From NCBI GenBank assembly GCA_037200925.1, contig JBBCGO010000001.1, forward strand, positions 73,552 through 137,551: a stretch of DNA of 64,000 nucleotides, written 5' to 3'. The notes beneath the pieces were generated by a model. The model saw only the letters and a list, made by a program, of their open reading frames with translations, was not told where the DNA came from and made no database searches. Made by a program: the position numbers and the translations under genes. Positions 2,191 through 52,343 of the stretch are shown here, piece by piece; the first letter of the stretch is position 1; each line of letters begins with the position of its first letter. This DNA is from Candidatus Doudnabacteria bacterium. GTDB lineage: Bacteria; Patescibacteriota; Doudnabacteria; UBA920; O2-02-FULL-48-8.

Positions 2191-3708
2191 ATGATCTCCA
2201 AACCTAGTAATAAATTTTTTATAGCCTTGACATTTTTTTTGTCAGGGATATTTTTAATTTTGTTTGTCTTAAACAGCCAGTTCACAAAATACTTGAGCGT
2301 AAAGCATATTAACGTCACGCTCACAAAAGACGGTTTTCAGCCGGGCAAGATCGAGATCAAGCAGGGCGATACCGTGACGTTTGTTTCAGATCTGGACAAG
2401 CCGTTTTGGCCGGCTTCAGACCTTCATCCAACCCATCTTTTGTATCCCGAATTTGACCCCAAACAGCCCATCGAGCCGGGCAAGACCTGGACATTTAAAT
2501 TTGATAAAGCCGGAATATGGACTTACCACAATCATCTCGATCCTGATATATTAGGGACCATCATTGTTCACAGCGCAGGTAACAGTAAAACCGCTAAAAT
2601 AGACCCGTCTTCCTGCGACGGGCTTTCCGATGATGTCGAGAAATTGAAATGCTGGAGCACTTCGCTGAACAATGTATTGGAATATCAGGGGATCGAAGCG
2701 GCCTTCGGCACGCTCGATAGCTGGTTAAAATCAGAGCCCGATTTTGAACCTTATTGCCATACTTTGGTGCATGAGGTCGGCGCTAAGGCTTACGATCTTT
2801 TTTCGGAACATAAGAGCTTTGGACTCACAGACCAGACATCGCTCTGCGGCTACGGATTTTACCATGGATTTACGGAAACCCTGGCTGCTGAGGGCGGCGG
2901 CATTGCTCAGGCCCGGCAGTTTTGTTCTTTCGTTTATGATGAATTGGGAAGTAAATTACCCGGAATTCTCGACCAATGTTACCACGGTTTTGGCCACGGG
3001 TCTGTTGACATCCATAACGAGGGTATTTGGGGGGATGAGATCGCGATGATACAGCCCGCCTTAAAAATGTGCCGCGCCGTGGCAACTGATTCCGAGAAGC
3101 TGTTCCGTTGCGGCACGGGGATGTTTGATTCGATCTCTATAGGTTATTTTACCCATGATTATAATTTAAAAATGAATTCCACAGATCCTTTTTGGCTGTG
3201 CCGGCAGCAGAAAGAGGAAGAATTTAAGCAGTCATGCTACGTGAGTTTGGATCCCGCTCTTTTACTGATGGAAAATATGGATTTTTCTAAAGCGTCCAAA
3301 TTTATTGAAAATATAAAAGAGGATCAACATGCGACTTTGGCCATGGGGAGCCTGGCTTTGCCGGTTTATTGGATCAAGGACAGGTCAGGCCGGGAAGCCG
3401 CCTCAAAAATGGATAATTTTTACCAAACCCAAGGGGTTGCTTCCTGCAGAACCTTGCAGAAACGCTTGATTGAGCCGTGCATAAAAAGCATTGCATATGC
3501 TTTGACAATGGATGAATCGCGCACCAAACAGTACCAGGAAGGACTTAAGTTCTGCCGGAGGACTGATCTGACTTCAGCTGAAAGCGGCGACTGCTTTAAT
3601 ACCGTGATCAGCACCCTTTCAGAGATTTACCCGAAAGATGAATTGGGTGTTATCTGCAATCAAGAATTGAAATCCGAAGATAAAATATATTGTCAGGGGA
3701 AAATTTAG
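2191..3708 (+). CDS. Secreted protein: N-terminal TM/signal, cupredoxin-like beta-sandwich domain, ~340-aa His/Cys-rich domain (paralog 1)
   Basis: 'WPASDLHPTH...YHNHL' cupredoxin-like segment, but no Cys ligand, so not a classical type-1 Cu site. Then 'CHTLVHEVG', 'CGYGFYHGF', 'CYHGFGHGS' and ~16 Cys. Paralogs at 4754..6226, 7278..8468 and 8476..8913. Confidence 0.6.
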   Translation: MISKPSNKFFIALTFFLSGIFLILFVLNSQFTKYLSVKHINVTLTKDGFQPGKIEIKQGDTVTFVSDLDKPFWPASDLHPTHLLYPEFDPKQPIEPGKTWTFKFDKAGIWTYHNHLDPDILGTIIVHSAGNSKTAKIDPSSCDGLSDDVEKLKCWSTSLNNVLEYQGIEAAFGTLDSWLKSEPDFEPYCHTLVHEVGAKAYDLFSEHKSFGLTDQTSLCGYGFYHGFTETLAAEGGGIAQARQFCSFVYDELGSKLPGILDQCYHGFGHGSVDIHNEGIWGDEIAMIQPALKMCRAVATDSEKLFRCGTGMFDSISIGYFTHDYNLKMNSTDPFWLCRQQKEEEFKQSCYVSLDPALLLMENMDFSKASKFIENIKEDQHATLAMGSLALPVYWIKDRSGREAASKMDNFYQTQGVASCRTLQKRLIEPCIKSIAYALTMDESRTKQYQEGLKFCRRTDLTSAESGDCFNTVISTLSEIYPKDELGVICNQELKSEDKIYCQGKI

Positions 3709-3712
3709 CGGA

Positions 3713-4738
3713 TTATTTGCAGGTGATCAATTTATTGGCCAGCAAATAATTCAGCAGATCTTGGGCTATGGCCTTGTGTCCTTCCGGGTTCGGGTGCTGG
3801 TCGGGAAAGACCTTGCCTGCTTTCACCAGATCCAGCGGGCTTTCGTAGAGATAGGTCCCATCACGCGATTTGCTGTAATTTTCCAACAACAACGCGGGAT
3901 TGGTTGTAGTAGATGGGAGCAGGTATTTCGGAGCATAGATCAGCAGATTGTTTTTATATAAGCTGTTAAATTCATTGAAAGCCTGCATGTTGTAGTCGAC
4001 AATTTCCTTCACTGATAATTGTTTGAGGCTGTCTTTGAAAGCCTGATCCCAGACATTAAAAACTTGCGGTTCGATCAGACCACCGCCCAGTTTATTCAGA
4101 TAGTCGTTGACTTTCGGGAGCAGAATTTCGTTAATATAGTCAATATCGTCATACTTTAAGAACCAGATGACCAGATCTGGATCGTATTTTTGTCCCCGAA
4201 GTTTGTACCGCTCTTCCGAATATTTAACATCATATCCCTGAACAGCCAAGTTGATCACTTCAAATTTTTTGTAAGTCGTACAGCCCATGCCGTTTAATTC
4301 ATCTTCCAGGACCTTAGGATAACTCTGTTCATTATTGACGAATAACCCGTACGTGAAAGAATCACCCAGGGTGATAATCCGGAATGTGCCCGGAGGTTTG
4401 TCGGGCGTGTAATCAGTAGTGCCGCGGAGCGTATCGTGGTTTATGTGATAGGTCGGCTTAATTTTCAACCAGTCTGGTACGCCGTTATTTGCCTCGCTAT
4501 CGGCCTTCGGTTCGTAGAAATATTTCAGACTCGATTGGTCGGGAAAAGTTACGCTGCTGCCCGCGATCGTGCTGAAAGAAGGAGTTGACGATAATATTTT
4601 CTTCCTGTGATAATCCGTGACAAGATAAACCACAGCTTCAAGTTCAAGAAGGATTATCAAGATTATAGCAAGGTTTCTGAATTTTCTTTTTGTATCGTTC
4701 ATGCGGCAGGAGGGTTGACTGATGACTTTACTTTTCAT
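3713..4738 (-). CDS. SGNH/GDSL-family hydrolase, membrane anchored (paralog 2)
   Basis: 'RIITLGDSFTYGLF' plus an N-terminal TM. Possible alternative start at 4702 (MNDTKRK). Divergently oriented to 4754..6226, as in the 1146/2191 pair. Confidence 0.7.
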   Translation of the reverse strand: MKSKVISQPSCRMNDTKRKFRNLAIILIILLELEAVVYLVTDYHRKKILSSTPSFSTIAGSSVTFPDQSSLKYFYEPKADSEANNGVPDWLKIKPTYHINHDTLRGTTDYTPDKPPGTFRIITLGDSFTYGLFVNNEQSYPKVLEDELNGMGCTTYKKFEVINLAVQGYDVKYSEERYKLRGQKYDPDLVIWFLKYDDIDYINEILLPKVNDYLNKLGGGLIEPQVFNVWDQAFKDSLKQLSVKEIVDYNMQAFNEFNSLYKNNLLIYAPKYLLPSTTTNPALLLENYSKSRDGTYLYESPLDLVKAGKVFPDQHPNPEGHKAIAQDLLNYLLANKLITCK

Positions 4739-11075: not shown

Positions 11076-11561
11076 ATGGGAAACAAAAAAAACCTTACAA
11101 TACTTGCGGTTTTAACGCTAATTTTTGTAACCGGGGTTTATTTGGCTTATAGATATAGGACCCCGGTACACCAGGTTCAAATCGGTCTTTTTGATGAAAC
11201 TGAGTCGCCCGACGCAGCCTATACGATTACTTTCCCTAATGTAACCAGAATGGTTTTTAGCCCCGACCAGAAGCCTTTAAGCGATTTGGTTTATTCCTTG
11301 AATTCCGGGCCCCAATATTTTATTGTTACCTATAATAACGGTAAAAAGGGTGATGAGGTTACTTTCAATGCAATTGGCACGGTAGATGAATTAATGAGTT
11401 TTTATTCAGGTCAAAAAAATTATCAGGTCATAAAAAAATACAGTAATGACAAGCAAGGCTTTGTAGAGTTAATCCAAGGCACGACAAGCATCAGGGTTTT
11501 ACTGATACAGCAAACCCCAGCTACGACGGTAAAAGTTACTATTCAAGGAATAACCAATTGA
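11076..11561 (+). CDS. Small N-terminally anchored membrane protein (module partner 1)
   Basis: N-terminal TM, then a ~130-aa beta-rich domain ending 'TTVKVTIQGITN'. Stop is 1 nt before the next start. Confidence 0.5.
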   Translation: MGNKKNLTILAVLTLIFVTGVYLAYRYRTPVHQVQIGLFDETESPDAAYTITFPNVTRMVFSPDQKPLSDLVYSLNSGPQYFIVTYNNGKKGDEVTFNAIGTVDELMSFYSGQKNYQVIKKYSNDKQGFVELIQGTTSIRVLLIQQTPATTVKVTIQGITN

Positions 11562-11562
11562 T

Positions 11563-13059
11563 ATGAAACGTAACTTATATTATTTATTGGCTTTCTTGTT
11601 CCTGGTTTTTATTGTTTTATCGCCGTCCAAAGAAGCGAAGGCGAACTCCACAACGTGTTACACGGCGGAAGGGACCGGAGGATCCGAGAATTTTTATTGT
11701 ACCCCGGCAAACGGATATACATGTGATTGCGGCGCTAACAGTGCCAGTTGTACCGATAACGGATCATATACTTGGCACGATGCCTATGGGAATTCCGGAA
11801 CTTGCTGGTCGGGATCAACTTGTAGCTGCACCACTACTTCCTATTCTTGTGGGGGCGGATCTACCTGCGATGGTCCTGTAAATGGAACCGGAAACGGCAC
11901 TCCCGGACAGACCGTTTGCGGTACGAACGGATGGACGTACACCTGCACTGCTCCGGGAAGTTGGATCGGGGGGCCGGGTTTTGGAAGTACATGTCCTGCT
12001 TGCTATTCTCAATCATCCTACTACTCTCAATCCAGTTATTACTCCCAATCATCCTACTACTCTCAATCCTCCTACTATTCCCAATCTTCTTATTACTCCC
12101 AAGCAGCCTACTACGCCCAATCAGCATACTACTCTCAGGCAACCTATTATAGTCAAGCAACTTATTACTCCCAAGCCGCCTACTACGCCCAATCAGCATA
12201 CTACTCTCAAGCAACCTATTATAGTCAGGCAACCTACTACTCCCAGGCAGCATATGTAGTAGCTCCCACAGCCCCGACCCTGACCAAAGTGGATAATATC
12301 AATACCGATGCTTCGGTGCCCTGTTCTAAGCTGAAAGTAACCTGGACTGATAACTCCGGCAATGAAACCGGCTTCATAGTCCTGCGATCAACCACATCAG
12401 GCTCAGGGTATGCCAATATCTCAGGCAACCTGCCTGCCCAGAGCGGCACAGGCACCTTTGGCACTTACCTGGATACCCCTCCTTCCACCGGAGTGACCTA
12501 TTTCTATGTGGTCCAGGCCTTCAATGCCGGGGGCAACAGCCAGTCAAACGAGAAGAGCATCATGAACGTTGTCTGTTCTGCCAACTTTGCCAATACAACG
12601 AAGTTTGTCAGTAAGGTCAACGGCAACCCCTATAGTCCCAGCACTTCAGTCAATAACGGGGATACCCTGACCTACCAGATCACCCTGGTCAATTCCGGCC
12701 CTTCTGCAGCCACGGTCAACTACATCTGCGACACTGTCTCTTCCAACCTGACCAATCTTAGGAACCTGACGGTTACAGGCCCGGGCTCTGTTAATGGGGG
12801 ACTGACAGCCAACAGCCCTACCTGCTCCGGTAATTATCTGTTTAACATCTCAGGCAACAAGGATGTGACCAATAACTGGATCATTACCTATGATGCCAAT
12901 GTCAGCACCGCATCCGCCGATATCCAGGAAGTGGTGACCAATACCTTTACCATCCATTACACTGATTCTTCAGCCAAAAGCTTCTCAGGCTCAGCCCCGA
13001 ACATCATTGTCAATTCCTCCACAGGCAAGACCCCGATCATCAGGGAAGTCGGGCCGTAG
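11563..13059 (+). CDS. Secreted Cys-rich protein with (S-Y-Y-S-Q)n pentapeptide tandem repeat, Fn3-like and DUF11-like domains (repeat protein A)
   Basis: Signal/TM, then a Cys/Gly/Thr-rich module. About 17 copies of 'SYYSQ' variants follow, then 'KVTWTDNSGNETGF...YFYVVQAFNAGG' (Fn3-like) and 'GDTLTYQITLVNSG' (DUF11-like). Confidence 0.6.
   Translation: MKRNLYYLLAFLFLVFIVLSPSKEAKANSTTCYTAEGTGGSENFYCTPANGYTCDCGANSASCTDNGSYTWHDAYGNSGTCWSGSTCSCTTTSYSCGGGSTCDGPVNGTGNGTPGQTVCGTNGWTYTCTAPGSWIGGPGFGSTCPACYSQSSYYSQSSYYSQSSYYSQSSYYSQSSYYSQAAYYAQSAYYSQATYYSQATYYSQAAYYAQSAYYSQATYYSQATYYSQAAYVVAPTAPTLTKVDNINTDASVPCSKLKVTWTDNSGNETGFIVLRSTTSGSGYANISGNLPAQSGTGTFGTYLDTPPSTGVTYFYVVQAFNAGGNSQSNEKSIMNVVCSANFANTTKFVSKVNGNPYSPSTSVNNGDTLTYQITLVNSGPSAATVNYICDTVSSNLTNLRNLTVTGPGSVNGGLTANSPTCSGNYLFNISGNKDVTNNWIITYDANVSTASADIQEVVTNTFTIHYTDSSAKSFSGSAPNIIVNSSTGKTPIIREVGP
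11998..12255 (+). repeat. Imperfect 15-bp tandem repeat (~17 units) encoding the SYYSQ pentapeptide array in repeat protein A
   Basis: 'tactactctcaatcc / agttattactcccaatcatcc...' has period 15. Equivalent arrays lie at 13969..14040 and 14167..14395 in protein B and 17646..17873 in protein C. Confidence 0.85.
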
Positions 13060-13105
13060 AAATGTTCGAAAAAGTCTGATAAAATAAATTATAAACACAA
13101 AATTT

Positions 13106-13678
13106 ATGGCAAACAGATATATCGCTTTGATCATAGTTTTGATAGCTCTCGCGATCGGGGGAGTATTCATCGGAGTTGTGTATTGGATCAATTTCCCGGT
13201 CAAAGCTCCTGCAACCGGACAAACAAGCACCACAACAACCAGCGCGTCTGCGGTAAATCCGGCTCCTTCACTCCCTCAAGCAGTCCCTGCCTCAACTCCC
13301 GAAGATTTGCTGAAAGTAATGCGCACGTATGCAAAAATCTCCGTCCCGGAAATTGCCTCGCAAACAGATGCCACAGCCAAGGACATACCCAGTCCCATTG
13401 CCACTTTACTCGGATCACAAACAAACTTAAAGGTAACAGCTGTGAATTATGCGAACAAATCATCCGGGCTTATTATTGAATTTGCAGAGCCGAAAAATGT
13501 TCAGGATACTTTTACCATATTCCGTCACCCCAGCAGCGATTGGAACGTATTGTCGGGAACTAATGCTCCTATGGCCGCTTTAGTTGATCTGGATAATGCC
13601 AATTACTCTGTTGTAATTGAATTGAGCCAAGTTGCGGATACCCAAACAGCGGTAAAGACCTGGGTCATAAAGAAGTAA
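13106..13678 (+). CDS. Small N-terminally anchored membrane protein (module partner 2)
   Basis: TM 'IALIIVLIALAIGGVFIGVVYWI', a Thr/Ser/Pro linker, then a beta-rich domain ending 'TAVKTWVIKK'. Confidence 0.5.
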   Translation: MANRYIALIIVLIALAIGGVFIGVVYWINFPVKAPATGQTSTTTTSASAVNPAPSLPQAVPASTPEDLLKVMRTYAKISVPEIASQTDATAKDIPSPIATLLGSQTNLKVTAVNYANKSSGLIIEFAEPKNVQDTFTIFRHPSSDWNVLSGTNAPMAALVDLDNANYSVVIELSQVADTQTAVKTWVIKK

Positions 13679-13698
13679 TGAATTAAATAAACAACAGT

Positions 13699-15174
13699 TT
13701 GAAACAAATACGCAAACAATTAGTGCTGTATATTGTGCTAGGCCTTGCAACTGCCATGGTATTTTTTGCAGTGCCTCATTCTTCAGCTGATACGATTTGG
13801 TGTTCTACTTTCCAATTTTGCAATGGAGGCGCTTCCTGTGCACCAAATCCATCAATGGCTCCAACCGATTGCCCTTCTACTGGCCATTGTTCAGATAATG
13901 GTTTTTCAATATGCGGCGATTTTCTTTATTGCGATAATGGTAATTATGCCATTTGCGATGCAACATACTCCCAATCCTCCTACTACTCCCAATCCAGTTA
14001 TTACTCCCAGGCAGCCTATTATTCCCAACCATCCTATTATTCTGAACCGCAATATTATCGCTGGCAGGGAGGCGGGGGATGCATATGTATGCCGGCCAAT
14101 CCAGGTGACTGCGTCATAACCAACACTGCAAATTGCACGGTAAACTCTAACTGCGCTGGTCTTCCTGCCTGCTACTCTCAATCCTCCTACTATTCCCAAT
14201 CAGCTTACTACGCCCAATCAGCATATTACTCCCAATCAGCATACTATTCTCAAGCGTCATATGGCGGCGGTTATTCCCAAGCAGCTTACTACGCCCAGTC
14301 TGCATACTATTCTCAGGCAGCCTATGCGGGTTACTCTGAAGCATCCTACTATTCCCAAGCAGCCTACTATGCCCAGGCATCGTATGTCTCTGCTCCAACC
14401 GCTCCTTCAGGCGTGGCTGTGGACAATGGCACTTGCGGCCAATTGACCGTGACCTGGACTGATAATTCCAACAATGAGACCGGTTTTACAATATGGAGAT
14501 CAACCACATCAGGCTCAGGGTATGGCCAGGTCGGCAGCGTAGGCCCTAATATTACGTCATTCCCAGACACCCCTCCTACCCCAGATATGACCTATTATTA
14601 TGTGGTCCAGTCGGTCAATGCCGGAGGAAGCACCCAGTCAGTATTAGAAGCAAGCGCTTACGACAACCCGTGTGTTGCCAATTTATCCGGGACCGCCAAG
14701 GTCTTAACCCAGATCAACGGCGCAGCCTATTCTTCAAGCACTTCCATCAACGCCGGGGACGTGCTGACATACCAGATCACGATCATCAATTCCGGCAATG
14801 CCCCTGCTGATATCACTTTCATCTGCGACACCGTCTCTTCCAACCTGACCAATCTTCGGAACCTGACGGTTACAGGAACCGGCTCTTCGGGTTCAGGTTC
14901 TGCCATAGTATCCAACGGCGGCTGCGGAGCAGGCAGCTACAAGTTCAACGTTACAGGAGCCAAACAGCCCTCTCCTCCTGACCCAGGCAACTGGATAATT
15001 ACCTATGATGCCACAGTCACCCCGGCCAGTGCTGATATCCAGGAAGTGGTGACCAACAGCTTTGTCATCCATTACAACAACAACGGAGCTAAAACCTTTG
15101 CAGGCTCCTCCCCGAGCATCCTCATCAATGCCTCAGCAGGCCAGGCCCCGAACTTCCATGAAGTGACGCCGTAG
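13699..15174 (+). CDS. Secreted Cys-rich SYYSQ-repeat / Fn3-like / DUF11-like protein (repeat protein B)
   Basis: Same architecture as protein A. Its 3' ~1 kb is ~99% identical to 17646..18656. Confidence 0.6.
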   Translation: MKQIRKQLVLYIVLGLATAMVFFAVPHSSADTIWCSTFQFCNGGASCAPNPSMAPTDCPSTGHCSDNGFSICGDFLYCDNGNYAICDATYSQSSYYSQSSYYSQAAYYSQPSYYSEPQYYRWQGGGGCICMPANPGDCVITNTANCTVNSNCAGLPACYSQSSYYSQSAYYAQSAYYSQSAYYSQASYGGGYSQAAYYAQSAYYSQAAYAGYSEASYYSQAAYYAQASYVSAPTAPSGVAVDNGTCGQLTVTWTDNSNNETGFTIWRSTTSGSGYGQVGSVGPNITSFPDTPPTPDMTYYYVVQSVNAGGSTQSVLEASAYDNPCVANLSGTAKVLTQINGAAYSSSTSINAGDVLTYQITIINSGNAPADITFICDTVSSNLTNLRNLTVTGTGSSGSGSAIVSNGGCGAGSYKFNVTGAKQPSPPDPGNWIITYDATVTPASADIQEVVTNSFVIHYNNNGAKTFAGSSPSILINASAGQAPNFHEVTP

Positions 15175-15177
15175 AAT
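14167..15177 (+). repeat. Direct duplication, copy 1 (~1010 bp, ~99% identical to 17646..18656)
   Basis: The antisense ORFs in the track (14147.., 14261.., 14367.., 14727..) are identical to 17643.., 17739.., 17845.., 18205... Only a few substitutions differ, e.g. cctgacccaggc vs ccggaccccggc. Confidence 0.9.
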
Positions 15178-15394
15178 GCTTAGGCGATAAATTTGATTTA
15201 GCGACCAAAGAGCAGCTTAGAGATAGGCCGCTCTTTGTTTTATCCTATTTCTATTGACAGTATCATTATTTGCGAGTAAACTGATATATTACGATACTAA
15301 TACCGTAGCGGCTTGCTCTACTTAAAGAATAGTGTCGCAACCAAGCCTTTCAAAAAAGGTTTAAAGAATTCAATCCGCAGGAGGGTGTGATTTT

Positions 15395-15799
15395 ATGAAG
15401 CGTCTAGTCGCCTTAGCTTTCGGCTCGCTGTTCGTCGCGGCCTGCAGCAAGGAAATGCAGTCGCCCGCAGCTCCCGCCGCGCCTCAGCCGCAGGCCACGG
15501 TCTCTGTGCTTGGCACACTGTCGCTCGTCAGTTGCGATGACGGCGGCCCGGGCCATGGCACTCCCGCCTGCACTTTCTCGGGAATCGTCCGGAACAACGG
15601 ACCGGATTGTGCCGCAGGTATCCAGGGGACCACGACCGTCTTAGTTCAATTTGGCGGCGTGGCTCAGTCATGGAGCGTTAACGCCACGTTGCGGCCTCAA
15701 GAAACGACGCAGTTCACTGTTTTTGGCTTCAGTCAGGGAGAGATCCAAACGGGCAAGCCGGAATCTTCGGCTTCAGCCAGAGGGGTAACCTGCCCGTAG
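15395..15799 (+). CDS. Small lipoprotein (lipobox 'FVAAC'); GC-rich cassette
   Basis: 'MKRLVALAFGSLFVAACSKE', about 62% GC. GGAGGG ribosome-binding site upstream; hairpin plus 'TTTTCTTTTT' downstream. Confidence 0.5.
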   Translation: MKRLVALAFGSLFVAACSKEMQSPAAPAAPQPQATVSVLGTLSLVSCDDGGPGHGTPACTFSGIVRNNGPDCAAGIQGTTTVLVQFGGVAQSWSVNATLRPQETTQFTVFGFSQGEIQTGKPESSASARGVTCP

Positions 15800-15914
15800 C
15801 GAATTCACGCGGAGAGCGTTCATTTTCAAGTGAACCTCTGCCGCGTTTTCTTTTTGCCTGACCTTGCAAATTTTTGTTTTTAATCATGCTATAATTCACT
15901 TGAAGTTTTAATTT

Positions 15915-16628
15915 ATGAAACTAATTCCCAAGCGCTATTTGATAATAGTAAGCATCTTTGTCATCGGAATATTTTTAACCGTTGCAGCTTACAGCACGCT
16001 TCGCTTTCATGAGAAAAATAAAACACCAGTTTCTGCGGACAGCGCAAAGTCTGAACCTATCGTCCGATCACCTCAGGAAATGCTTAAGGAGCTGAGCAGG
16101 AACTCCCCTCAATTAGGAAGTCCAAACGCCCCGATTCAGGTCGTGGAATTTGCGGATTTTCAATGCCCATACTGCGAACAGTTTTATGCCACTGCTTTTA
16201 ATCAGATAAATGATAAGTATGTTAAAACAGGAAAGGTAAAATTTATTTTTGCCGACGCCCCGATCATCGGAGAAGAGTCGACGATCGCGGCCCGCGGAGG
16301 CAAGTGTGCGGATGAGCAGGGAAAATTTTGGGACTATTACAATTATTTGTTTCAGCATCAGAAACCCGAGAATAACGGCAACCTGAGAACATCTAATTTG
16401 AAAAAGATAGCTTTGCAGATCGGTCTCGATGGAGAGCAGTTTGACGCTTGCCTGGATTCGCAAAAATACGCTTCCGAGGTATCTGATGAATTGAAACTTT
16501 TCGGCGTGCTTGGCATTACCGGGACGCCTGGATTTGTCATTAATGATCAGGTAGTATCAGGCTATAAAGCGGGGGTAATTCAGGGGATAATTGATAAAGA
16601 ATTGAAGTCTATCGATCCGAATCCTTGA
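15915..16628 (+). CDS. DsbA/thioredoxin-family thiol:disulfide oxidoreductase, membrane anchored
   Basis: 'VVEFADFQCPYCEQF' CPYC active site, plus an N-terminal TM. Confidence 0.8.
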   Translation: MKLIPKRYLIIVSIFVIGIFLTVAAYSTLRFHEKNKTPVSADSAKSEPIVRSPQEMLKELSRNSPQLGSPNAPIQVVEFADFQCPYCEQFYATAFNQINDKYVKTGKVKFIFADAPIIGEESTIAARGGKCADEQGKFWDYYNYLFQHQKPENNGNLRTSNLKKIALQIGLDGEQFDACLDSQKYASEVSDELKLFGVLGITGTPGFVINDQVVSGYKAGVIQGIIDKELKSIDPNP

Positions 16629-16694
16629 CATTTGCCTGATTTGTTTTTTTATTGTATATTAAATTTGCTGTAATACCCCAAAAAATGAAATAAA

Positions 16695-17252
16695 ATGAAT
16701 AAAGCAGTCAAATGGGTTCTTATTGTAATCTTGATTTTGGGTGTAATAATCAGTGCTGGGTTCCTTGCAGTGAAATACTGGCCTAAGAATACCAATTCTC
16801 AGGCGAACATTCTTCAAAGAGAACAAGCAGCGGATGCCTATGTTCCAAGCAAAGACCCGGCAGCTGATCTGGCGGCAGACAAACAGAAACTTCTTAAGCT
16901 CGCTACGTTAAATTTTCTGGCGATTGATACGTCTGAGGTTTCCGATGTGCCTTCGGATCTGAATTTTTTGAAGATAAAGGATGCCACAAATTTAGTATCA
17001 AATAAAGTCAGCTACACTGACGGTTCAAATGGATTTTTGATAACAATGGATCTGGATTATCCTCTGTTTTCCGCCTATCAGACCGAAGCCAGGAGCATAC
17101 ACTATGAACAAGGCTGGAGCCAGATTTATGGAGCTATCACTAATACATTTGCTTTGCTGGAAGCAAAAAATAATACCAATCAGATCCAGATCAGGTTTAC
17201 AAGATTATCAACCGAACTTACAACCGTCGAGATTAAAGTACTGACGAAATGA
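16695..17252 (+). CDS. Small N-terminally anchored membrane protein (module partner 3)
   Basis: TM 'WVLIVILILGVIISAGFLAV', beta-rich domain ending 'TTVEIKVLTK'. Its stop overlaps the next start (ATGA). Confidence 0.5.
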   Translation: MNKAVKWVLIVILILGVIISAGFLAVKYWPKNTNSQANILQREQAADAYVPSKDPAADLAADKQKLLKLATLNFLAIDTSEVSDVPSDLNFLKIKDATNLVSNKVSYTDGSNGFLITMDLDYPLFSAYQTEARSIHYEQGWSQIYGAITNTFALLEAKNNTNQIQIRFTRLSTELTTVEIKVLTK

Positions 17253-18652
17253 CAATATCAAACAAATTTTTATTCATAATTATTATTTTGGCGAGTGTTG
17301 GGGCTCTGTTTGTTACTGTAAAAATTAGCAATGCACAGACTTGTTGGACTTATGGCTGTGATGGGGTGAGTGGTGAATGCAGGGTTGCCGGCAATACTTG
17401 CGGGGGCGGACAGACTTGTGTGGATCAAGGTTTTGTAACTTGCCCTGCGGGCGGGTGCGGCGAATCTTTTAGCTGCGTGACTTCTTATTCCCAATCATCC
17501 TATGTATACAACACCCCCTACTCTGAACCGCAATATTTTCGGTGTTCAGGGAGCGCACAAAGCGTATGCATTCCGGCTAATCCCGGCGACTGCACCATAG
17601 GTAATACTGCAAATTGTTCAGTAAATAATAACTGCAGCCCTATTACCTGCTACTCTCAATCCTCCTACTATTCCCAATCAGCTTACTACGCCCAATCAGC
17701 ATATTACTCCCAATCAGCATACTATTCTCAAGCGTCATATGGCGGCGGTTATTCCCAAGCAGCTTACTACGCCCAGTCTGCATACTATTCTCAGGCAGCC
17801 TATGCGGGTTACTCTGAAGCATCCTACTATTCCCAAGCAGCCTACTATGCCCAGGCATCGTATGTCTCTGCTCCAACCGCTCCTTCAGGCGTGGCTGTGG
17901 ACAATGGCACTTGCGGCCAATTGACCGTGACCTGGACTGATAATTCCAACAATGAGACCGGTTTTACAATATGGAGATCAACCACATCAGGCTCAGGGTA
18001 TGGCCAGGTCGGCAGCGTAGGCCCTAATATTACGTCATTCCCAGACACCCCTCCTACCCCAGATATGACCTATTATTATGTGGTCCAGTCGGTCAATGCC
18101 GGAGGAAGCACCCAGTCAGTATTAGAAGCAAGCGCTTACGACAACCCGTGTGTTGCCAATTTATCCGGGACCGCCAAGGTCTTAACCCAGATCAACGGCG
18201 CAGCCTATTCTTCAAGCACTTCCATCAACGCCGGGGACGTGCTGACATACCAGATCACGATCATCAATTCCGGCAATGCCCCTGCTGATATCACTTTCAT
18301 CTGCGACACCGTCTCTTCCAACCTGACCAATCTTCGGAACCTGACGGTTACAGGAACCGGCTCTTCGGGTTCAGGTTCTGCCATAGTATCCAACGGCGGC
18401 TGCGGAGCAGGCAGCTACAAGTTCAACGTTACAGGAGCCAAACAGCCCTCTCCTCCGGACCCCGGCAACTGGATAATTACCTATGATGCCACAGTCACCC
18501 CGGCCAGTGCTGATATCCAGGAAGTGGTGACCAACAGCTTTGTCATCCATTACAACAACAACGGAGCTAAAACCTTTGCAGGCTCCTCCCCGAGCATCCT
18601 CATCAATGCCTCAGCAGGCCAGGCCCCGAACTTCCATGAAGTGACGCCGTAG
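17249..18652 (+). CDS. Secreted Cys-rich SYYSQ-repeat / Fn3-like / DUF11-like protein (repeat protein C)
   Basis: Divergent Cys-rich N-terminus. From 'CYSQSSYYSQSAYY' to the stop it is ~99% identical at the nt level to protein B. Confidence 0.6.
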   Translation: MTISNKFLFIIIILASVGALFVTVKISNAQTCWTYGCDGVSGECRVAGNTCGGGQTCVDQGFVTCPAGGCGESFSCVTSYSQSSYVYNTPYSEPQYFRCSGSAQSVCIPANPGDCTIGNTANCSVNNNCSPITCYSQSSYYSQSAYYAQSAYYSQSAYYSQASYGGGYSQAAYYAQSAYYSQAAYAGYSEASYYSQAAYYAQASYVSAPTAPSGVAVDNGTCGQLTVTWTDNSNNETGFTIWRSTTSGSGYGQVGSVGPNITSFPDTPPTPDMTYYYVVQSVNAGGSTQSVLEASAYDNPCVANLSGTAKVLTQINGAAYSSSTSINAGDVLTYQITIINSGNAPADITFICDTVSSNLTNLRNLTVTGTGSSGSGSAIVSNGGCGAGSYKFNVTGAKQPSPPDPGNWIITYDATVTPASADIQEVVTNSFVIHYNNNGAKTFAGSSPSILINASAGQAPNFHEVTP

Positions 18653-18656
18653 AACC
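17646..18656 (+). repeat. Direct duplication, copy 2
   Basis: See copy 1. The 5' boundary falls inside the 15-bp repeat array; the 3' boundary is just past the stop codon. Confidence 0.9.
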
Positions 18657-34974: not shown

Positions 34975-35100
34975 TGTATAATTAATCCAACAACTGAATA
35001 TATATCAAGAGTGGCGGTGAAAGCTCTGGCTTTATGACCCGCCCGGCAACCCTCAACAAGAGAAGGTGCCAATTCCAGCCTCTAACGAGGAAAGATAATA

Positions 35101-52269: not shown

Positions 52270-52343
52270 TGGGGAGTAGCCAAGTGGTAAGGCAATGGAC
52301 TCTGAATCCATCATCGAAGGTCCGAATCCTTCCTCCCCAGCCA
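52270..52343 (+). tRNA. tRNA-Gln (anticodon CUG), CCA encoded
   Basis: 'TGGGGAG...CTCCCCA' acceptor stem with U1-A72, as in E. coli tRNA-Gln. D-arm 'GCCAAGTGGTAAGGC', anticodon loop 'CTCTGAA', T-arm 'GAAGGTCCGAATCCTTC', then GCCA. Confidence 0.85.

Follow-up and report, generated by a model that had tools for sequence, protein, structure and literature searches.

Two neighbouring genes in a 64,000-nucleotide (nt) stretch of DNA (hereafter the window, to whose first letter all positions refer) from an uncultured, ultrasmall bacterium, Candidatus Doudnabacteria, are nearly identical across their 3' two-thirds, while their 5' parts have strongly diverged. The best explanation for this pattern, to which we assign a probability of roughly 85% from sequence comparison, is a recent intragenomic gene conversion between the 3' halves of the two genes, here called B and C. 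Both are old tandem paralogues encoding secreted adhesin- or pilin-like proteins, with gene A as a third. A first-pass annotation had already proposed recent gene conversion or segmental duplication for two repeat-protein genes, B and C; its reading as conversion confined to the 3' halves is supported here, with corrections to the repeat unit, the breakpoint and the assembly risk, and the third tandem paralogue, A, had gone unmentioned. The elements on which the argument turns are the following.

Gene A, 11563..13059, + strand: third tandem paralogue (498 amino acids), serving as the unconverted baseline (open reading frame, alignment)
Gene B, 13699..15174, + strand: 491 amino acids (open reading frame, alignment)
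Gene C, 17249..18652, + strand: 467 amino acids, architecture as in B (open reading frame, alignment)
Tract copy 1, 14168..15176, + strand: the 3'-terminal 1007 nt of gene B and the 2 nt that follow its stop codon
Tract copy 2, 17646..18654, + strand: the 3'-terminal 1007 nt of gene C and the 2 nt that follow its stop codon
Sole two differences between the copies, 14979..14985, + strand: T versus G at 14979 and A versus C at 14985, synonymous third positions
Array 1 of B, 13965..14039, + strand: 18-nt units, outside the tract, diverged from the matching remnant in C
Array 2 of B, 14172..14386, + strand: 18-nt units encoding YYSQ[SA][SA], inside the tract, its first 30 nt equal to 12057-12086 of A
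Array 2 of C, 17650..17864, + strand: identical to array 2 of B
Single long Tyr-rich array of A, 12003..12251, + strand: 18-nt units, about 13 copies

An abrupt step in divergence between genes B and C

Ungapped base-by-base comparison, together with repeat finding, placed the tract at 14168-15176 and 17646-18654 (offset 3478, 1009 nt), with 1007 of the 1009 bases the same (99.8%). The roughly 1 kb of ~99% identity reported by the first-pass annotation was thereby confirmed, with its coordinates correct to ≤1 nt. The copies differ only at 14979 (T in copy 1, G in copy 2) and 14985 (A/C), where they read cctgacccaggc and ccggaccccggc, exactly the example substitutions quoted previously. Both mismatches are synonymous, and the last 336 residues of the two proteins are the same. 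The two changes are also placed symmetrically, one in each arm of a 4+3+4 mini-palindrome (CCTG-ACC-CAGG at 14976-14986 versus CCGG-ACC-CCGG at 18454-18464), an arrangement that could reflect a single event or chance.

Outside the tract, similarity falls away on both sides. The coding sequence 5' of it (469 nt in B, 397 nt in C) aligns at 54% identity with 72 gap columns, in agreement with the earlier description of these halves as strongly diverged, and the 300 nt downstream of the two copies are 39% identical, which is background. The 5' part is far denser in mismatches than the tract (Fisher exact p ~6e-113). Estimated by the Nei-Gojobori method, synonymous divergence (dS) between B and C drops sharply, from ~1.45 over the 133 aligned codons of the 5' part (nonsynonymous divergence, dN, 0.69; 40% amino-acid identity) to 0.00-0.01 over the 334 codons of the whole 3' part. 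Within the latter, the 72 codons of array 2 contain 0 differences, and the 262 codons of the fibronectin type III (Fn3) and DUF11-like part have a dS of 0.01 and a dN of 0.

Gene A provides a baseline for these values. Over the same 3' regions its dS to B and C is 0.82-0.91 (0.82 in the Fn3 and DUF11-like part, with 56% amino-acid identity), and the partner genes b and c, which lie upstream of B and C, are only 23% identical in amino acids and 44% in nucleotides. The tract must therefore be far younger than the duplication that gave rise to the two genes. Selective constraint at the protein level was considered as a cause of the identity and is ruled out by the identical silent sites.

B and C can be aligned from the signal peptide through the stop codon and are thus homologous from end to end. 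They are also sister paralogues, since both contain array 1 and a Cys-rich insert (PANPGDC...NTANC) that A lacks. Even in the final 117 nt ahead of the breakpoint the two agree at 73% of positions, with a codon indel. From the full-length alignment, the common insert and this similarity just ahead of the breakpoint it follows that each gene already carried a homologous 3' half of its own when the event took place. Between the two tract copies stand unrelated genes, for a lipoprotein and a DsbA-like protein.

The tract opens, 4 nt 5' of array 2, at base 2 of the codon just ahead of the Cys that comes before the first unit, such that array 2 lies wholly within it. The breakpoint is thus the 5' edge of array 2 and not a position inside the repeat array, as first suggested, and the repeat period is 18 nt (a hexapeptide; Tandem Repeats Finder and repeat families) instead of 15 bp. 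At the other end, the tract stops 2 nt past the stop codon, where 2-3 nt had been reported. Because A, B and C all terminate in CCGTAGAA, these 2 nt belong to sequence that the three genes have long had in common, and the tract extends as far as the homology does. Other bacterial gene pairs that evolve in concert likewise have tracts ending at the limit of homology.

A and B share their longest exact run, of 30 nt (CTACTCTCAATCCTCCTACTATTCCCAATC), at 12057 in A and 14172 in B, within the first units of array 2 and 4 nt past the start of the tract; exact matches between the 5' parts of B and C reach 16 nt at most. As the place of longest perfect homology among the paralogues, array 2 is a plausible crossover site. 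The earlier proposal that the event was nucleated in the repeat array gains plausibility from the position of this run, which falls short of proof.

Probable gene conversion and its alternatives

The history that we propose would begin with intrachromosomal homologous recombination, probably of the RecA type, which would have copied the 3' 1 kb of one gene over that of the other non-reciprocally, resulting in concerted evolution. The 5' crossover would have been made through the long exact matches within the 18-nt array, and the 3' limit of the tract would simply be the end of homology. Such an event would have overwritten the Tyr-rich linker array, the Fn3 domain, the DUF11-like immunoglobulin-like (Ig) domain and the conserved C-terminal tail, leaving the Cys-rich N-terminal parts, the partner genes and the spacer genes unaltered. 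Its outcome would be variable N-terminal heads carried on a homogenised stalk/anchor module.

Several points weigh against this history. For a tract to reach the last homologous base there must have been a series of events, or else resolution inside a handful of conserved bases at the end, and since the pre-event sequence of the converted copy is gone, a crossover within the array has to be inferred. The searches turned up no orthologous locus in a close relative, the only relatives being 41-48% identical, and without such an outgroup donor and recipient are indistinguishable. A search for the RecA Walker-A motif, confined to the 64-kb window, found no recA. Finally, the evidence for two copies is at the level of contigs.

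The closest competitor to gene conversion, in our judgement an unlikely one, is a partial (segmental) duplication with fusion, in which illegitimate recombination placed a copy of the 3' half of one gene behind an unlike, pre-existing 5' fragment, giving a chimeric gene with no homologous 3' half being overwritten. Segmental duplication had been offered alongside conversion by the first-pass annotation, and the tract does begin at a domain/linker boundary and end ≤2 nt from the stop codon; moreover, relatives carry the same C-terminal module on unrelated N-terminal parts, so that shuffling of the module occurs. However, the 5' parts of B and C are homologous throughout, right up to the 73%-identical stretch before the breakpoint, for which two full paralogues are the simplest account. 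Both genes already had a homologous 3' end, and A has the same terminal sequence. Within 10 kb there is also no extra duplicated flank, target duplication or mobile-element gene. With both genes homologous up to the breakpoint, partial duplication is less parsimonious than conversion.

An assembly artefact would explain the identity if the 3' half had been collapsed or copied by the assembler or during polishing, or if the contig were a chimera of strains. The source was identified through exact proteins on the 964-kb contig JBBCBH010000057.1 of GCA_037975565.1, an assembly made with hifiasm-meta from PacBio HiFi reads (mean 18.3 kb) as a co-assembly of four metagenome samples (PMC11613949); neighbouring proteins bear the label Candidatus Doudnabacteria. 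Co-assembly of this kind, in combination with near-identical 1-kb repeats, is a classic source of error; however, at a mean of 18.3 kb against 4.5 kb, HiFi reads should span the whole structure, and the retention of two differences between the copies argues against a collapse.

Further evidence comes from independently built contigs, each 100% identical to the window. One Logan k-mer contig from the HiFi run SRR28211699 (L102) covers 15147-17675, that is, the unique spacer together with exactly 30 nt of each copy, and a second from the same run (L105) covers 13032-14197 and stops 30 nt into copy 1. As de Bruijn-graph contigs break k-1 bases inside a repeat, these ends are those expected of a true two-copy repeat. 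Together, the independent contigs reproduce both entry junctions and one exit junction, the 5' junction of copy 2 being contained in L102, which ends at 17675. A third contig, from an Illumina run (L103, 15798-17617), halts 29 nt before the tract, unlike the two that end 30 nt inside it; coverage or a strain variant could be the reason for this early stop.

A short-read assembly, GCA_015689235.1, for which only the gene tables were used, likewise joins each 5' half to the tract: one of its contigs holds A, b and the first 331 residues of B (~550 nt of tract), and another the DsbA-like gene, c and the first 148 residues of C (~46 nt of tract). Both copies are therefore real, and an assembly error is very unlikely. 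The assembly risk raised by the first-pass annotation is thus largely answered, at the contig level, by the long-read source and the k-mer contig junctions. In practice, these 1-kb direct repeats are a point at which assemblies from short reads come apart, and a deletion or duplication of 3.5 kb could originate there.

Least probable of all is a duplication of the whole cassette followed by accelerated or targeted diversification of the 5' part, by a diversity-generating retroelement or strong positive selection: a variable head on a constant stalk is the typical product of such systems, but the 5' halves are saturated at silent sites and contain many indels, and the partner genes b and c, as well as those in the spacer, are either just as old or unrelated. 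The same saturation and indels, with the 23% identity of b and c, bear out the earlier statement that this is not a whole-gene duplication. Targeted hypermutation and diversity-generating retroelements were rejected as candidates in their own right, as the substitution spectrum of the 5' part is even, comprising all twelve base changes with no adenine specificity, and Pfam annotation of the genes within 10 kb includes no reverse transcriptase; no recombinase was annotated there either.

The gene cluster and its C-terminal module

The large genes are accompanied by smaller partner genes, and two further genes fill the spacer between the tract copies.

Partner gene a, 11076..11561, + strand: 161 amino acids, N-terminal membrane anchor, upstream of A
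Partner gene b, 13106..13678, + strand: 190 amino acids, N-terminal anchor, upstream of B and outside the tract
Partner gene c, 16695..17252, + strand: 185 amino acids, N-terminal anchor, upstream of C
Small predicted lipoprotein, 15395..15799, + strand: N-terminus ...LFVAACS, in the unique spacer between the copies
DsbA-like thioredoxin, 15915..16628, + strand: in the unique spacer (Pfam Thioredoxin_4 5e-32, DSBA 3e-17)

The stop codon of c overlaps the start of C by 4 nt (ATGA, 17249-17252), a ends 1 nt before the start of A (11561-11563), and b and B are separated by 20 nt; this overlapping or abutting arrangement suggests translational coupling between partner and large gene. A scan for promoters and terminators around the genes gave results no better than those for shuffled sequence. 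Elsewhere in the window, a SAM riboswitch (34999-35100, + strand; 57 bits, over the gathering score) and a tRNA gene (52270-52340, + strand) are unrelated to the tract.

A, B and C have a common order of parts: a signal peptide, a Cys-rich part, Tyr/Ser/Gln-rich arrays, an Fn3 domain, a DUF11/DUF7927-like Ig domain and a tail ending in EV[TG]P. In B, the sequence runs from the signal peptide and Cys-rich part through the short Tyr-rich array 1, the Cys-rich insert and array 2 to the Fn3 domain, the DUF11/CLIPPER-like Ig domain and the tail ...NFHEVTP-COOH. The diverged N-terminal parts (13699-14167, 17249-17645 and 11563-12000) contain ~10-20 Cys residues, and together with the DsbA-like gene inside the cluster this suggests disulfide-bonded extracellular heads. 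Arrays of the YYSQSS type have a composition that recalls SYGQ-rich low-complexity domains, and similar Tyr/Ser/Gln hexapeptide arrays occur in three unrelated metagenomic proteins (P0019, P0022 and P0027), one of which has a Hint/intein-like C-terminal region.

Most domain matches fall below threshold. For gene B, sub-threshold matches were obtained to Pfam fn3, DUF11 and DUF7927 and to NCBIfam TIGR01451 and TIGR04226. Scores for Pfam DUF11 were 17.6-18.7 bits against a cut-off of 24.6, and those for DUF7927 were 18-21 against a cut-off of 31, rising to 29.4 in a metagenomic relative (locus L085). Only A exceeded a threshold, scoring 25.5 with TIGR01451 (cut-off 24; B, 22.1). An AlphaFold2 (AF2) model of B is all-beta over residues 234-487, with a predicted local distance difference test (pLDDT) score of 60-87, and of low confidence in the N-terminal half. 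Its best Foldseek matches in the Protein Data Bank (PDB) were the Gram-positive shaft pilins SpaD, BcpA and PilA, MSCRAMM adhesins (ACE) and tandem Fn3 proteins, and a PDB sequence search with the DUF11-like profile returned no match.

DUF11 (also called CLIPPER), DUF7927 and DUF7619 are CnaA-like stalk domains of fibrillar adhesins, often with a Lys-Asp-Asn isopeptide bond (PMC12617251). The corresponding Lys-Asp-Asn triad of B, K334, D377 and N477, is kept in 7 of 9 family members, the Lys being missing from those at loci L090 and L093, so its reading as an isopeptide triad is suggestive only. All members end in ...[FI]xEVxP without a hydrophobic segment, and neither LPXTG nor another known sorting signal was found. 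The three proteins resemble fibrillar adhesins or pilins, and we did not assign them to either, since LPXTG is lacking and the Pfam matches are sub-threshold.

The family of proteins with this C-terminal module is rare. A profile search of 1.84 billion representative proteins, of which we considered the best 150 matches listed, recovered the full module only in P0001 and P0159, the rest being mostly giant multi-Fn3 proteins. A word-indexed search with full-length B gave mostly Fn3 and Tyr-rich low-complexity matches, with P0001 as the sole true family member, and a contig scan with the generic Fn3 pattern W[TN]DNS[NG]NE gave 80 unrelated Fn3 proteins and no orthologous Doudnabacteria locus. 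A metagenome scan identified 11 loci with the module.

In the window this unannotated module occupies 14395-15174, 17873-18652 and 12260-13059; at loci L083-L094 it ends proteins of 381-1040 amino acids on Patescibacteria-like metagenome contigs. The module, consisting of Fn3, the DUF11-like domain and the ...[FI]xEVxP-COOH tail, closes the protein in all relatives, with E, V and P invariant in nine sequences. The N-terminal parts of the relatives are unrelated and comprise 120 to 780 residues of YEYQ or PSYPSY arrays, poly-Pro/Cys repeats or multi-domain regions. A protein of ~185 amino acids with an N-terminal anchor and a small lipoprotein usually adjoin the module genes, lipoprotein-like neighbours being present at L084, L085 and L087. 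On these sequence features, the module may serve in surface anchoring or sorting.

One metagenome contains a second instance of mosaic paralogues. Locus L084 has two in tandem (59-1180 and 2415-3992), the first of which is nearest to the second in the linker and Fn3 region (71-83% nt identity); in the DUF11-like domain it is nearest to the gene at L085 (2066-3400) from the same metagenome (65-83% versus 44-61% to its tandem neighbour). This pattern points to an older recombination at an inter-domain boundary. The recurrence of mosaic exchange at domain/linker boundaries supports the view that recombination is a normal mode of evolution in this family.

Comparison with known systems

The mechanism invoked here, gene conversion, is already known, and the locus offers a clean, well and contig-verified example of its ordinary operation on adhesin-like paralogues of Patescibacteria. 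The genomes of Patescibacteria are tiny, these bacteria are believed to rely on attaching to other cells, and little is known of how their surface proteins are diversified and maintained. A literature search found no paper on gene conversion in bacteria of the Candidate Phyla Radiation. The analysis also brings to light a small family of unannotated proteins whose C-terminal EVxP end is invariant.

A more far-reaching possibility, which we regard as doubtful, is that the three cassettes serve an epibiotic Patescibacterium as a working system that varies its attachment to host or substrate by recombination. The Tyr-rich 18-nt array would then act as a recombination joint that re-fits Cys-rich heads to the homogenised Fn3, DUF11-like and EVxP-COOH module, which would itself be an undescribed module for surface anchoring or sorting, recognised by the small membrane-anchored protein encoded next to it. 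The mosaic paralogues at L084 and L085 and the presence of the module on unrelated proteins of 381-1040 amino acids fit such a system and do not demonstrate it.

In protein architecture, A, B and C share with fibrillar adhesins and Gram-positive pilins a signal peptide, an N-terminal head, a repetitive linker and an Ig-like stalk domain. They differ from Gram-positive pilins in having a single C-terminal DUF11-like domain in place of tandem stalk repeats, and an invariant ...EVxP-COOH end in place of LPXTG.

With respect to the process, duplicated bacterial genes such as tufA/tufB are known to evolve in concert (e.g. Santoyo & Romero 2005). The B and C tract resembles that pair in its near-identity, including silent sites, and in ending at the limits of homology; however, tufA and tufB are homogenised as whole genes, whereas here only the 3' two-thirds are affected.

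The nearest counterpart is found in Helicobacter pylori. PMC3960876, citing Pride & Blaser 2002, describes 3' segments of babA/babB and homA/homB that are homogenised by concerted evolution in each strain, the 5' ligand-binding segments remaining divergent, and attributes the chimeric genes to intragenomic, probably RecA-dependent recombination. The two cases differ in that the H. pylori genes encode outer-membrane beta-barrels of the Hop family at dispersed bab loci, with conversion seen experimentally and across strains; those described here encode an Fn3 and DUF11-like module in a Patescibacterium, lie in tandem 3.5 kb apart, and have their conversion inferred from one genome. Both consist of paralogous surface adhesin or adhesin-like genes with homogenised 3' and divergent 5' parts, and conversion in B and C would follow the logic of babA/babB, keeping the stalk/anchor module uniform while the heads diverge.

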